Origin: Chloroflexota bacterium
GTDB taxonomy: Bacteria > Chloroflexota > Dehalococcoidia > UBA2979
Length of the DNA: 64,000 nt
Reading direction: 5' to 3'
NCBI GenBank assembly: GCA_027593235.1
Contig: JAQCIU010000003.1
Span: 1-64,000 of the forward strand
The translations under genes were made by a program, and so were the position numbers. Of the stretch, positions 21,877 to 26,671 are shown piece after piece. The first letter of the stretch is position 1. Each line of letters starts with the position of its first letter. The notes beneath the pieces were generated by a model. The model saw nothing but the letters and a program-made list of their open reading frames with translations. It was not told the DNA's origin and searched no databases.

Positions 21877-22347
21877 GTGGGATTGCACCGCTTCGAGACC
21901 GTGCAGACGTTGCCGGTGGGTCTTGCCGCAGCGTGGGACTTCTTCTCCGATCCGAAGAACCTGGCGGTGATCACGCCGCCGGAGATGTCCTTCGAGGTGA
22001 CCTCACCGCTCCCGGAGCGGGTCTACGCGGGTCTGATGGTGACGTACCGGGTGAGGCCGCTGCTGCGGATCCCAGTGCAGTGGGTCACGGAGATCACGCA
22101 TGTGGACGAGGGGCGCTACTTCGTCGATGAGCAGCGGCTCGGCCCGTACCGCGTGTGGCACCACGAGCATCACTTCAGCGAGGTGGCGGGCGGCATCGAG
22201 ATGCGCGACATCGTTCACTACGCGGTGCCGCTTGGGCCGCTGGGTGATGTGCTCGATCGATTGGTGATCGGCAAGCGCGTCGAGGAGATCTTCGCGTTCC
22301 GGCGGCGGGTGCTGGAGCGGCGCTTTGGACAGCCGATCGTTCGCTAG
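21877..22347 (+). CDS. SRPBCC family protein
   Basis: AWDFFSDPKNLAVITPP, WVTEIT, FVDEQRLGPY..WHHEH, IFAFR. Confidence 0.88.
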   Translation: MGLHRFETVQTLPVGLAAAWDFFSDPKNLAVITPPEMSFEVTSPLPERVYAGLMVTYRVRPLLRIPVQWVTEITHVDEGRYFVDEQRLGPYRVWHHEHHFSEVAGGIEMRDIVHYAVPLGPLGDVLDRLVIGKRVEEIFAFRRRVLERRFGQPIVR

Positions 22348-22700
22348 CGTGCGTAGTGCGCGAACGCGCGGGTGACCAGGCCGTCGCCGTTGAAGAAGAA
22401 GACCTCGGCCGAGGGGCCGCGGTGCCCCTCGTAATAGAGCGTGATGCTGTCGACGCCGAAGAGCGTGGTCTCCAGGTCGAAGTGGAGGTTCGGCATCATG
22501 CCGAGCGCCTTCGTCCAGTAGGCGGCAACCGCCGGCTTGCCGGCGAGCGTGCCGCTGGGATCGCCGGTGATCGAGGGGATGACCGGCGAAGACATCTCGA
22601 AGTCCTCGGTGTAGTGGGCGAGGACGCGGGGGAGATCGTGGCTGTTCCAGGCCTCGATCCAGTCGCGCGCGAACTCGGCGGCGAAGGCGGCATCGAGCAT
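22344..22700 (-). CDS. SnoaL / NTF2-like protein
   Basis: WIEAWNSHDL..LAHY..DFEMSSP, YW..AL, GVDSITLYY. Confidence 0.85.
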   Translation of the reverse strand: MLDAAFAAEFARDWIEAWNSHDLPRVLAHYTEDFEMSSPVIPSITGDPSGTLAGKPAVAAYWTKALGMMPNLHFDLETTLFGVDSITLYYEGHRGPSAEVFFFNGDGLVTRAFAHYAR

Positions 22701-22835
22701 CGGATCTCCTCGGGAGCGGCGAACGCGCGGGTAGTGGCGCGATCGTAGCTGGCACGAGGCTGACGGTCGCCTGCCGCGGAGGGGGTGCCGAGGCGAGATC
22801 CGGCGCGGGAGTTGGCGGGCGGATCGAGGCGGGGG

Positions 22836-23342
22836 CTAGGGGTTCTCGACCTCGCAGTCGGCGCCCGGGAAGCTGTCGCCATCGCCGCCACCGGTGCAGT
22901 CATCGGTATCTGCGCCACCGTAGAGGGTGTCGACCTCGGTGCCACCGACGATGATGTCGTCGCCGGCGCCGCCGGAGAGCACGTCCGCGCCGGCGTCGCC
23001 GTTGATCAGATCGTCGCCTCCACCGCCGAGGATGCAGTCGTCGCCGCCACCACCGGAGATGTTGTCGTCGCCGGCGCTGCCGACGATCAGGTCGTTTCCG
23101 GCGGTGCCGTTGATGACGCCGGCGCCGCCGACGAGCGAGGTGATGGCGATGCCGGCGCAGATCGCCGGCTTGAGGTCATTGGGGACGATCGCCTGGGCCG
23201 AGGAGCTGGAGGAGGTGGCGGGGACGACGATCGCCGCCGCGGATCCGGTAATCCGGGTGGTGCCAGCGAACAGTACGAGCGCGGCAAGCAGGAGGACGGC
23301 GATCGCTTTCATCGTCGTTCGCCGGAGCCTACGCGGCCTCAT
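22836..23342 (-). CDS. Secreted RTX-type Ca2+-binding repeat protein (putative minor or tip fibre subunit)
   Basis: Signal peptide, [19 protein letters not shown], then repeated GGxGxD nonapeptides; start overlaps the stop of the peptidase gene (alternative start MKAI at 23312). Confidence 0.8.
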
Positions 23343-25290
23343 CGTAGTAATAGTCACCGCGTTCGAAGCGCGAACCGGGGAGCACCTCATCCGCGACGTA
23401 GCGGTAGGTGAGATCGCCGTCGATCACGAAGTACTGGCCGCTGAGGTCGACGATGTTGTCGACGATTTCGGCCTGCTCGAGATCGGCCTGCGCGCCATCG
23501 ACGATGGCGAGCGCCTCTTCGTCACCGGCGAGGAACGATTCGATCAGGGCGCGCGGGTCGCGGCGCAGTGGGCTGTTGGGGTACGGAGCGCCCGGCTCGA
23601 TGTCCTGGCGGTGCCGGCCGGCGAGTGGCGGAGCGGCAGCGAGGATCGGCAAGCCTTCGCGCTCCGCGACGCGCACAAGATCGCCGAAGCGGGCGACGCG
23701 GAGTACGCGGTGGGTGGCGGGGATGCGATCCGACGCCACCTCGACCAGGAGGTGGTCGTAGCGGGAGTGGATGCGGGCACGTTCGCCGGCGCGGAAGGTC
23801 TGGTAGGTGATCAGGCCAAGCGTGGCCAGGCCGAAGCCACAGAAGATGAGGATGGTGACGGCGATCCGTGGGAAGTCGGTGTAGGCGATCTCCGTGCCGA
23901 AGAGCGGCAGCGTGACGGTCTTGCTGGTGGCGGTGAGGGTGGTGACGGTGCCGCCATCGAGGAGTTGCAGATCGCCGATGCGGTCATCGAACTGGAGCTG
24001 CAGGTCGGTGAGGCGGAAGCCTGAGGGGTGGACGACGTGGCGGCTGAAGGGCTGCCCGGCGAGTTCGCCCTCGATGGAGATGGTGGCGATCAGGCCCAGT
24101 TCGTAGATGTCCGAGGTGATGCCGGTGGCGGCCTCGAAATCGGCGATGATCGCGTCCACGGCGTCGAGATCGAGGACGCCGTTCAGTGCGGCGCTGTTCC
24201 CGGCGAAGAGCGTGGTTCGTTGGATTACCAGCGGCTGGCGCCAGCCGTTGGCGTGGCGTACCTCCGCGACCAGCTCGTAGGAGCCGGTGACGTTCTCCGG
24301 TTCGAACGCGGACTCGGACGCGACGGTGTACTCGTAGACGACTGGCAACTGCGAGGTGAGCGCGCGGAACACCGGTTGCGGTGGCGCGTCAGTAGTGTCC
24401 TGGAAAAGCTGGCCGGTCGCTTCCGGTCCGTAGCGCAGTTCACCCTGGATGCCGTAGGGGACGGCGGTGGTGGTGAGTTCCGTGCTGCCCTGGGTGCTGG
24501 TGACCAGTGGGAGCGCGATTGCGACGAGCATGATGGCCATCAGGATGGTGAGGAGCTGGCCACCCCACGGCCCGTAGTAGCTAAAGCGCCCGAGATCGAC
24601 GCCACCGGGGCCCTGGGGCGGACGACCGCTGGGCCCGACGGGTTCGAGCGAGCGGAGGAACGGCGCGGACAAGGGGGCACGCCGAGCGGACGGGCGTGCC
24701 CGAGGGCGACGCGGGGCCTCGGAACTGGTGCGCTCGCCACGGGGCATGTCGTCGTTCGACGAGCGGTTAGGCCGCCGTCGCCGCTGCTGCTGCTGATCGC
24801 CGGACTGAGTCATGATGCCCAGTCCAATCGCTCCGGTGATGAGGAGGGCGACGTTGCCGGGAGCCTGGAGGGCGCGAAGGGCAGCGCCGACACGCGGCAG
24901 AGTGCGGAAGCCCTCGCCGATGATGTCGTCGGGAGCGGGGTGATAGGCGTCCGCGGTGTTGCGGTTGTCGCCTTGAACGGTGAAGCGGCCGCCGTGATCG
25001 ATGGTGACACGGTGGAGGACGACGCCGAGGTTGGGATGGCGGTACGCGACGATGTCGCCGGGATCGTAGTCATTCCGCTGGCGCAGGAGCACGACGTCGC
25101 CGTGGTTGACGGTCGGCGCCATGGAGTCGCCCTGAATGAGTACGTAGGAGAAGTTGCCGCCGATCGAGGCTGGCGCGAAGCCGAGCCACAGGAGCAGCGC
25201 GGCCCCGAGCAGGGCGCCGCCGACGAGCGCGCCGCGCAGTGGGCGGCGGCCGACGGAGCGGAAGGCAGCAGGGCGAGTTCGCTGTCGCAC
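23329..25290 (-). CDS. SipW / ER-type (Ser-His) signal peptidase I fused to a large membrane-anchored extracellular domain (DUF5305-like)
   Basis: GDSMAPT..GDVV, GDIVAY, VLHRV, QGDNR...D; several TM segments bracket a beta-rich domain; GGAGG RBS before GTG. Confidence 0.85.
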
Positions 25291-25299
25291 AACACCCTC

Positions 25300-25725
25300 C
25301 TACTGCTCCGCAATGACCGCGGTGAAGTTGTTGGTCGCCGTGGCGGTCAACTGGACGTTGGTGTTGGCGTTGGCGGGGGTGGTGTCGCACGAGATGTCAT
25401 GCGCGGGCGGTGCGCCACCGACGCGGGTGCACTGGTACCAATCGCCGCTGGCGTTCACGAATTCGACGAAGATCAGCAGCGAGACGTTGACGCCATCGCC
25501 ATTGTCGGCGGTCGCGGTGAAGGTGACGGTGTTCACGTTTGGCGGGTTGGTGGGATCGAGCGCGTAGTTGATGTTGGTCACGGTGAAGCCGGTGATGGTG
25601 GCGGCGCCTTCACCAGCGGAGGTCTGAGGGACGGTGTTCACGGCCGTGAACGCAGCACCCCCGACCGCGAAGATCGCGAGGGCGGTGATGAGTTGCAGTG
25701 GCCCGCGACGGAGCGCTCGGCGCAT
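25300..25725 (-). CDS. SipW-cognate secreted protein, TasA/pilin-like major subunit candidate
   Basis: AAGGAG RBS; signal ending GGA-AFTA; T/N/V-rich beta-type mature chain with one Cys pair; directly upstream of the SipW-type gene. Confidence 0.75.
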   Translation of the reverse strand: MRRALRRGPLQLITALAIFAVGGAAFTAVNTVPQTSAGEGAATITGFTVTNINYALDPTNPPNVNTVTFTATADNGDGVNVSLLIFVEFVNASGDWYQCTRVGGAPPAHDISCDTTPANANTNVQLTATATNNFTAVIAEQ

Positions 25726-25954
25726 CGACTCTCCTTGTCACGCCGCACGCGGAGCATGGTCGCCCGCGTTCACACGTGATTCGTCCGGTCCATGCTGACG
25801 TTTTCGGGCGCTCGCGGCGTCGGGGAAACCCCGTCATCACGGGAAGAATCGGCCCGTCAGGGGATTCGTGGGGCGAGCGCTACCATCACCCTCGATCCCG
25901 TGCTCCGATGCGAGGCGCGGAGCGGGGCTCAGCGCAGGGGAACCAGGCGGTCCG

Positions 25955-26671
25955 ATGCTTGAATTGCGCAACCCACACAGCGTGATCGCGGCCCTGGACA
26001 CGCGGCCGGGCGATGTCGCGCGGCTGGAACTACCGGCCGGTGGCGGCGGTCCTGCCTGGCGGCGCGCCGTTGAGCGCGCGGAACGGCTGGGGATCCCGAT
26101 CGGGACGCTCGAGGACCGTAGCCGCTCGGGCGGGCGCGAACGCGGCGCGATCGGACGGGTGGCGGAGCGCGCGCCCGTGCACCTGGATGAGCTGGTCGGC
26201 GGCGCTTCCGAGGGTGGGCTGTGGCTCGCCCTCGATTCCTTGCAGGACCCGCACAACGTGGGCGCGATCTTTCGGATCGCGGCGTTCTTTGGTGTGCGGG
26301 GCGTGCTGATGACGCGCGACCGCGCGGCGCCGATGAGCGGGGTGGTCTACGACGTGGCGAGCGGTGGCGTCGAGGCGGTGCCGTTCGCGGCGGAGACGAA
26401 TCTGCACCGGGCGCTGGGGATCGCGCGCGACGCAGGGATCTGGCTCCTCGGCAGCTCCGAGCATGCGCCGCGGGATGTCTACGAGATCCCGCGCGATCGC
26501 GCCTGGATGCTGGTGCTGGGCAACGAGGAGAACGGGCTACGACCGCGGACGTTGGAGGCGTGCGACGAGGCGGTACGGGTAAGCGCCGCCGAGGGCGCGA
26601 CGGTCACCTCGCTCAACGTCGCGAGCGCGGCAGCGGTGCTGATCGGCGCGCTGGCGCGACCGACCGGGTAG
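25955..26671 (+). CDS. SpoU/TrmH family RNA 2'-O-methyltransferase (RlmB-like)
   Basis: LDSLQDPHNVGAIFR, VLGNEENGLR, SLNVASAAAV. Confidence 0.92.
   Translation: MLELRNPHSVIAALDTRPGDVARLELPAGGGGPAWRRAVERAERLGIPIGTLEDRSRSGGRERGAIGRVAERAPVHLDELVGGASEGGLWLALDSLQDPHNVGAIFRIAAFFGVRGVLMTRDRAAPMSGVVYDVASGGVEAVPFAAETNLHRALGIARDAGIWLLGSSEHAPRDVYEIPRDRAWMLVLGNEENGLRPRTLEACDEAVRVSAAEGATVTSLNVASAAAVLIGALARPTG

Follow-up and report, generated by a model that had tools for sequence, protein, structure and literature searches.

The 64,000-nucleotide (nt) stretch of DNA analyzed here (the window; contig JAQCIU010000003.1 of a Dehalococcoidia bacterium, phylum Chloroflexota) carries a module of three genes, called A, B and C below. 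They encode, respectively, a small secreted protein, a membrane-bound signal peptidase fused to an accessory-type domain, and a secreted calcium-binding-type repeat protein. The A-B-C arrangement is far beyond chance, because it is kept across many genomes. We read it as an export and maturation module that builds a fibre or a matrix from A, with C, and give this reading as a whole about an even chance.

Conservation of the module and its fused peptidase

Of the 401 genomes sampled from the phylum, 26 (~6%) contain members of the A family, a count that includes the window's own genome and one flagged unpublished genome (G173). At 22 loci (the window, a second locus of the same genome and 20 loci from the phylum sample), 20 have B adjoining A, and at 16 C comes next; where B is missing, at two loci, the A gene is a second copy in a genome that holds a full module as well. 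Among 80 named loci, B adjoins A in 78, one of the others being cut by a contig end and one being without B, and C follows in 61 of the 78 A-B loci; of the remaining 17, 11 are cut by contig ends and six have room for C. The 80 loci come mostly from Anaerolineae and other Chloroflexota metagenome-assembled genomes (MAGs), and also include Levilinea saccharolytica, Ornatilinea apprima, Litorilinea aerophila MAGs, a Tepidiforma MAG, a Gaiellaceae MAG and a Thermoleophilia MAG. Both samples were drawn from one species collection and overlap, and related genomes are not independent cases, so that all these counts are to be read as consistency and not as statistics. All-against-all clustering of the flanking open reading frames (ORFs) yielded no further family in more than seven loci, antisense shadows aside.

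The module also varies. Several loci carry two or three tandem A paralogues. In one variant from Thermoleophilia (L072:5989-7292) a peptidase of 217 amino acids (aa) without DUF5305 stands between A and C; in another (L110:6001-9065) a 159-aa peptidase is followed by a 663-aa protein matching the C profile; and in a third (L130:4264-6378) B lies upstream of A. At L052:6722-9328, L041:6479-8721 and L051:9440-11243, A or B is found in two pieces or in overlapping frames, and these split genes may be frameshifts, assembly errors or decaying copies.

The N-terminal part of B matches Peptidase_S24 in Pfam (E = 2.6e-9, 37.2 bits, cut-off 23.3) and TIGR02228, the archaeal-type signal peptidase I, in NCBIfam (55.7 bits, above the cut-off of 51.85), whereas against NF046067, the equivalog of the Bacillus SipW, it scores 26.8 bits, far under the cut-off of 190. 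Judged by sequence, B is an enzyme of the same type as SipW but not its orthologue. In an alignment of 17 B homologues S56, H93, R94 and G107-D108 never vary, and D114 hardly does. We take S56, H93, R94 and G107-D108 to be the catalytic boxes of a Ser-His enzyme of the endoplasmic reticulum (ER) type, with an 'HR' box, in which His replaces the bacterial Lys, and a GDN box.

Hydrophobic segments at residues 21-43, 145-161 (weaker), 246-264 and 476-494, together with a basic linker between the second and the third (residues 166-245, 16 Arg+Lys versus 6 Asp+Glu), suggest a topology with four transmembrane (TM) helices, in which the peptidase domain and the domain at residues 265-475 are both predicted to be extracellular. 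Against DUF5305 (PF17231) the window's B scores 18.2 bits (E = 0.0018), below the gathering cut-off of 29, but eight of the 11 B homologues scanned pass this cut-off (31-46 bits), among them the paralogue from the same genome (41.8 bits), and for this reason we assign the middle domain of B, on sequence grounds, to the DUF5305 module. The DUF5305 regions of the homologues align with one another. The domain bracketed by TM helices and followed by a tail (residues 495-653) has the DUF5305 layout given in the AbpX preprint (10.64898/2026.01.04.697558).

These results bear out much of the initial annotation, made from the sequence alone, which had described an operon-like unit of three genes with a Ser-His (SipW/ER-type) signal peptidase fused to a large TM-bracketed extracellular domain. 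It had pointed to neighbourhood conservation as a check, and the 78 of 80 and 61 of 78 loci given above agree with it; the search for DUF5305, which it also named, falls short with the window's B itself and succeeds with most homologues.

Two secreted partners with a common N-terminal motif

No Pfam or NCBIfam family matches A at E <= 1. A word-based search with A found 53 relatives, all unnamed, one of them from a Dehalococcoidia MAG. When 1.84 billion representatives were searched with a profile, 1397 clusters matched at E <= 0.001 and 513 at E <= 1e-10, with lengths that lie almost always between 110 and 160 aa. Ten clusters that were looked up are annotated as 'hypothetical protein' or are nameless, and the neighbours of A in the ESM Atlas are unnamed clusters from Chloroflexota and Actinomycetota. 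A search for longer or fused forms of A found none, which is weak evidence.

The N-terminus of the window's A reads ...FAVGGAAFTAVNTVPQTSAGEG, and the family consensus is ...YAFAAxNTVPxSxAGDGxxxISGYTVSxIxYxLN..., plus two nearly invariant Cys. Mature A has ~116 residues (11-12 kDa, pI ~4, 9 acidic versus 1 basic residue) and two Cys, which probably form one disulfide. The AlphaFold2 (AF2) model of A (predicted local distance difference test score, pLDDT, 74.5) is all-beta, with a six-strand beta-sandwich from residue 43 on, in line with the small, beta-rich, secreted protein first annotated here. Residues 4-39 have pLDDT <50 in this monomer model, in which the N-terminal extension is unstructured. 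Conservation in the family is highest in the extension (residues 24-42) and in the first strand, with a mean fraction of the commonest residue of 0.66 and 0.64, respectively, versus 0.39 elsewhere.

C matches HemolysinCabind (PF00353) in four stretches (E = 3.6e-18, 65.6 bits, cut-off 23) and carries an N-terminal Sec-type signal. Its AF2 model (mean pLDDT 86.6) consists of a confident N-terminal helix (H2-22; blocks of residues 1-20 at pLDDT 89-93), an extended linker and a beta-roll of short strands with a nine-residue period, and it resembles solved RTX blocks (36-43% identity, Foldseek probability 1.00, E 0.02-0.7). P31, P49, C52, D92, C93, C153 and E154 are invariant in 15 homologues, and P49, C52, D92, C93 and C153 in 44; one further Cys lies within the repeats. 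Classic RTX proteins are substrates of type I secretion with a C-terminal signal. C shares their GGxGxD nonapeptide repeats and differs from them in its very small size, in its N-terminal Sec-type signal with an A-like motif and in its four conserved Cys. The reading of C as a secreted GGxGxD-repeat protein is thus upheld by the HemolysinCabind match, while its start has probably to be moved: the longest ORF extends to 23390, and the ATG at 23312, 16 nt past the stop of B, is the likely start of a 158-aa protein, since homologues align from there and the longer ORF would overlap B.

A and C have in common the motif [A]-[F/V/I]-[A/T]-A-x-N-T-V-P-x-[S/T], located directly behind the hydrophobic segment in both proteins at most loci. 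Its A version is nearly constant (YAFAAANTVPxTKAGDG), and its C version drifts in some lineages (AFAAGISVPPSNVG); some C proteins match the A-family profile through this motif. In the whole genome of the window only three ORFs carry the motif behind a hydrophobic stretch, namely the two A paralogues and an orphan C paralogue. Several A-x-A-like registers fit the cleavage of A. As to a SipW-cognate signal (TIGR04088), NCBIfam gave no match for A (E <= 1) and none of such a kind for C, the presence of TIGR04088 in the library scanned not being confirmed.

Proposed function and its alternatives

There is a strong case for B as the dedicated processing enzyme of A and C, given the synteny, the intact catalytic residues, the private motif common to both proteins and the precedent of the haloarchaeal tafi locus, in which deletion of the neighbouring signal peptidase gene tafD abolished both the processing of TafA and the filaments (PMC11821415). 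In the mechanism that we propose, the three genes would by themselves suffice as a module for export and maturation in a monoderm bacterium. B is a membrane protein that joins an ER/archaeal-type Ser-His signal peptidase I to DUF5305, a separate accessory protein in the tafi and AbpX loci, and A and C would be its two cognate substrates, exported by a Sec-type signal that ends in the common motif. Cleavage, which we place somewhere in A24-V29, would free an acidic FN3/Ig-like A of 11-12 kDa with one disulfide and a free extension of ~16 residues; mature C would be a small Ca2+-binding RTX beta-roll with two disulfides and an A-like extension. By analogy with TasA/TapA/SipW, tafi and AbpX, A would then be the major subunit of an extracellular fibre or matrix, assembling through its N-terminal extension, and C could use its A-like extension to occupy one fibre end as a nucleator, cap or anchor, possibly in a Ca2+-dependent manner. 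For these last steps, the polymerisation of A through the extension with C at one end, the chances of being right and wrong are in our view nearly equal. The donor-strand exchange put forward in the initial annotation, and the parts it gave to the peptidase protein as anchor and to the RTX protein as cap, are likewise proposals by analogy.

The closest known systems are the tafi locus (the subunits TafA, TafE and TafC, the peptidase TafD and the DUF5305 protein TafG) and the AbpX/TasA loci. TafG, a DUF5305 protein (PMC11821415), has been proposed to assist TafD (PMC12337348), and in the AbpX preprint DUF5305 is a putative peptidase accessory (10.64898/2026.01.04.697558). Fusions of peptidases to DUF5305 are already in print in passing, for some bacteria including Tepidiforma (PMC11821415) and for Anaerolinea thermophila (10.64898/2026.01.04.697558). 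The statement of the initial annotation that no characterised system has this architecture is therefore outdated. The accessible literature on TasA, signal peptidases and donor strands in Chloroflexota gave no description of the A family, of the motif common to A and C or of the RTX partner, although supplementary tables might list such loci.

The module is like tafi in having a dedicated Ser-His signal peptidase beside genes of small secreted beta-sandwich subunits and a DUF5305 protein, and in having putative major and minor subunits, processing by the neighbouring peptidase being shown experimentally in tafi. It is unlike tafi in its bacterial host and in that peptidase and DUF5305 form one polypeptide, the signals are of the Sec and not the Tat type, an RTX beta-roll takes the place of the minor partner, and no regulator or adhesin genes are conserved at the locus; A also has no detectable relation to the TasA family (Peptidase_M73, PF12389), the tafi subunit sequences not having been compared directly.

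AbpX, as described in the preprint, is an acidic subunit with two Cys, and its 16-residue extension is unstructured in the monomer prediction and becomes a Ca2+-reinforced donor strand (10.64898/2026.01.04.697558). The window's module shares with the AbpX loci the TIGR02228-type peptidase, the proposed accessory DUF5305 and the implication of calcium, and A is likewise acidic, with two Cys and an extension of ~16 residues that is unstructured in the monomer model. On the other hand, AbpX is a jelly-roll member of the TasA superfamily and A is not detectably one, Ca2+ sits at the donor-strand interface of AbpX whereas the Ca2+-binding element here would be a separate RTX protein, and the peptidase associated with AbpX is described with ten TM helices, while four are predicted for B.

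In Bacillus, the N-terminal region of TapA, the minor protein, mimics a strand of a TasA subunit. The end of the signal of the window's A, VGGA-AF, resembles the TasA signal end. Like the tapA-sipW-tasA operon of Bacillus subtilis, the module is a three-gene unit of a signal peptidase, a (here putative) major fibre subunit and a minor protein (PMC9674648, PMC10151520); it differs in gene order, in the score of B far under the SipW equivalog, in the lack of Peptidase_M73 in A and in C, which is unrelated to TapA.

Several features of A are those of known donor-strand subunits: a free conserved extension, an acidic pI of ~4, two Cys and tandem paralogues. A number of results weigh against a fibre built from A. 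First, the initial annotation had called the small protein TasA-like, and this was not supported: besides the lack of Pfam and NCBIfam matches, the A-family profile matches no PDB sequence, and an hhalign comparison of the A family with eight Peptidase_M73 proteins of the same phylum gave a probability of 2%. No Peptidase_M73 domain was found in A or anywhere in the window's own genome. The A model looks like a generic FN3/Ig-like sandwich rather than a jelly roll; a Foldseek search of PDB gave nothing at E <= 0.001, and VIA-align returned only generic FN3/Ig/CBM-like matches, with Z of 6.4 and 6.2 for the best and < 7 for all. The VIA-align matches listed include no chain of TasA, AbpA or tafi, which does not exclude a relation. 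Second, the monomer model may already be a complete sandwich, and the extension (N-T-V-P-x-S-x-A-G-D-G), in which Pro and several Gly occur and large hydrophobic residues are scarce, makes a less good amphipathic strand than W2-I12, the donor strand given for AbpX in the preprint (10.64898/2026.01.04.697558). Third, a canonical AxA register in the window's A would put Thr at -1, the window's own C has a degraded motif, the six loci with room for C lack it, the second module of the window's genome has none beside it, and no anchoring function (sortase, LPXTG, SLH) is conserved near the module. Complex prediction with three copies of mature A (residues 27-141) scored 0.00 in two runs, which speaks neither for nor against binding.

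The strongest alternative, which we hold to be somewhat unlikely, is that B matures two secreted or wall-associated proteins that do not polymerise, the motif being a recognition determinant for B on the mature side, A a monomeric FN3/CBM-like binding module and C its soluble Ca2+-binding partner. This would explain the conservation of the module and the common motif equally well, and it would fit the fold matches of A, which include binding-type domains such as cytokine-receptor FN3 and CBM21 (Z 5.5-6.4), the Pro/Gly-rich extension and the searches, in which neither fused or longer forms nor anchor genes came up. The apparently non-TasA fold class of A and such an extension keep this alternative alive. 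Against it stands the conservation of the A extension well beyond any plausible peptidase site, through A-G-D-G into the first strand; tandem A paralogues in several loci also argue against it, as does the fact that, in three sources, the characterised loci pairing a TIGR02228-type peptidase with DUF5305 all make filaments (PMC11821415, PMC12337348, 10.64898/2026.01.04.697558).

It is improbable that the N-terminal segments of A and C stay uncleaved and anchor both proteins in the membrane, in a complex with B of which they would be ectodomain subunits and not substrates, loosely like the accessory subunits of the signal peptidase complex. The confident N-terminal helix of the C model would agree with such an arrangement, but in both families the hydrophobic segment is succeeded by small residues that fit A-x-A-type sites, B has invariant catalytic residues, and in tafi the neighbouring peptidase does cleave the subunit (PMC11821415). 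Finally, we rejected as very improbable that A belongs to the archaeal-type machinery of some Chloroflexota, in which archaella do exist (PMC12488501), as a protein like a type IV pilin or an archaellum stator (FlaF/FlaG): its similarity to the beta-sandwich domains of FlaF, FlaG and archaellin (Z 4.6-5.2) is within the search background, the surroundings of A hold no conserved gene for an ATPase, a platform protein or a prepilin peptidase, and the partner is a type I and not a class III signal peptidase.

Returning to a fibre or matrix made of A, its most specific form can be put forward tentatively, as possible rather than probable. The module may represent an unrecognised class of fibre or matrix in monoderm Chloroflexota and some Actinomycetota, in which an 11-kDa FN3/Ig-like A unrelated to the TasA jelly roll would polymerise via A-x-N-T-V-P-x-S-x-A-G-D-G, a disulfide-stapled RTX protein C would nucleate or cap it in a Ca2+-dependent manner, and a peptidase-accessory fusion, like a minimal signal peptidase complex, would mature both.

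Locus layout, related loci and significance

The three genes are closely packed ORFs on the minus strand, in the order A-B-C (Table 1). B has a GTG start 9 nt past the stop of A, with GGAGGG just upstream, and the ribosome-binding site annotated initially before A was read directly. The G+C content of the window is ~69%; an explanation of the ORFs as chance products of high-GC DNA was dismissed in view of the conservation of all three proteins. The module is flanked by housekeeping genes unrelated to it, for a SnoaL-like protein, an esterase, an epimerase and, on the opposite strand, a SpoU methylase. Scanned for promoters and terminators, positions 22300-26000 gave nothing promoter-like and a single terminator-like site, which lies within the downstream gene and does not exceed what shuffled sequences give. 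All 2-kb bins of window positions 1-64000 have a positive GC skew (0.045-0.176), and the cumulative skew climbs without a turn.

Table 1. Genes, domains and motifs of the A-B-C locus in window coordinates
Feature	Positions	Strand	Remarks
Shine-Dalgarno sequence AAGGAG	25731..25736	minus	5 nt before the ATG of A; read directly
Gene A, 141-aa precursor	25300..25725	minus	small secreted acidic beta-sandwich protein, unnamed family
A residues 24-40 (AAFTAVNTVPQTSAGEG)	25606..25656	minus	end of signal peptide and conserved N-terminal motif/extension
Gene B, 653 aa	23329..25290	minus	fusion of signal peptidase I and DUF5305-type module
B residues 30-165	24796..25203	minus	ER/archaeal-type signal peptidase domain (S56, H93-R94, G107-D108, D114), between TM1 and the weaker TM2
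B residues 246-494	23809..24555	minus	TM3, DUF5305-type domain (predicted extracellular) and TM4
B residues 495-653	23332..23808	minus	predicted cytoplasmic C-terminal domain; start conserved, length varies among homologues
Gene C, 158-aa precursor	22836..23312	minus	secreted RTX beta-roll protein, four conserved Cys
C residues 23-36	23205..23246	minus	diverged copy of the A-x-N-T-V-P-x-T motif common to A and C; P31 invariant (15 homologues)
C residues 59-140	22893..23138	minus	GGxGxD nonapeptide repeats, modelled beta-roll; block mean pLDDT 77-98 over residues 41-140

The same genome contains a second A-B module on contig C13 (L004:7393-9713). Its A paralogue has 47% identity and the N-terminus ...FAVGGAAFTAANTTPGSSAGDD, and its B is a 548-aa peptidase-DUF5305 fusion (DUF5305, 41.8 bits) with no C gene adjoining; the next gene (L004:9872-11011) encodes a 379-aa protein with a C-terminal LysM domain. 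An orphan C paralogue of 148 aa (HemolysinCabind, 3.8e-15), located on contig C35 (L161:8108-8554; C35:107107-107553, minus strand), has the motif STAANLTPNSS behind its signal and no A or B nearby, and may be the missing partner of the C13 module. Also on C35, L162:5486-8219 encodes two small secreted proteins (169 and 198 aa) of no Pfam family, the signals of which end in ...GGVYAWDA and ...GAAFAWSA, followed by a stand-alone DUF5305 protein (437 aa, 45.7 bits) and a 131-aa TM protein; this looks like a locus of the tafi/TasA type with a separate accessory protein. Contig C53 carries a stand-alone 203-aa signal peptidase (L163:5239-5850) related to the peptidase domain of B (E = 2.4e-12 versus the B-peptidase profile; Peptidase_S26, 24.2 bits) and a large RTX-repeat-rich open frame of 966 aa (C53:66658-69381).

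In the same phylum, a relative of the B peptidase domain lies within 1.5 kb in 17 of 20 Peptidase_M73 (TasA-like) loci, so that peptidases of this type are habitually found beside genes of secreted subunits. No genome among the 401 belongs to both the 26 with the A family and the 37 with Peptidase_M73, when ~2.4 shared genomes would be expected under independence; one of the 37 is unpublished (G344), and since relatives are not independent, this amounts to no more than a hint that A-type and TasA-like systems replace one another. In a further genome of the Chloroflexota, a protein matching the C profile (L151:1-864, minus strand, beside L151:1258-1809; E = 5.7e-24) adjoins a classical TasA-like protein and a SipW-type peptidase, so that modules other than the A type may have RTX partners too.

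In summary, loci with a dedicated signal peptidase and DUF5305 are emerging, in archaea and Firmicutes, as the hallmark of biofilm and bundling fibres of the TasA-like kind. The A-B-C module extends this hallmark to a large unnamed family of putative subunits, present in ~6% of the sampled Chloroflexota genomes and in some Actinomycetota, with an apparently different fold class and an RTX minor partner. If the module does make fibres, these would be candidate structures of cell-cell or cell-surface attachment among the filamentous Anaerolineae, a group that abounds in sludge and sediments, and the module would be a compact system of three genes, with a 12-kDa subunit, for the coupling of cleavage to assembly by a peptidase-accessory fusion. 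Cultured carriers exist (Levilinea, Ornatilinea, Tepidiforma and Litorilinea), which makes the idea of a fibre directly testable.

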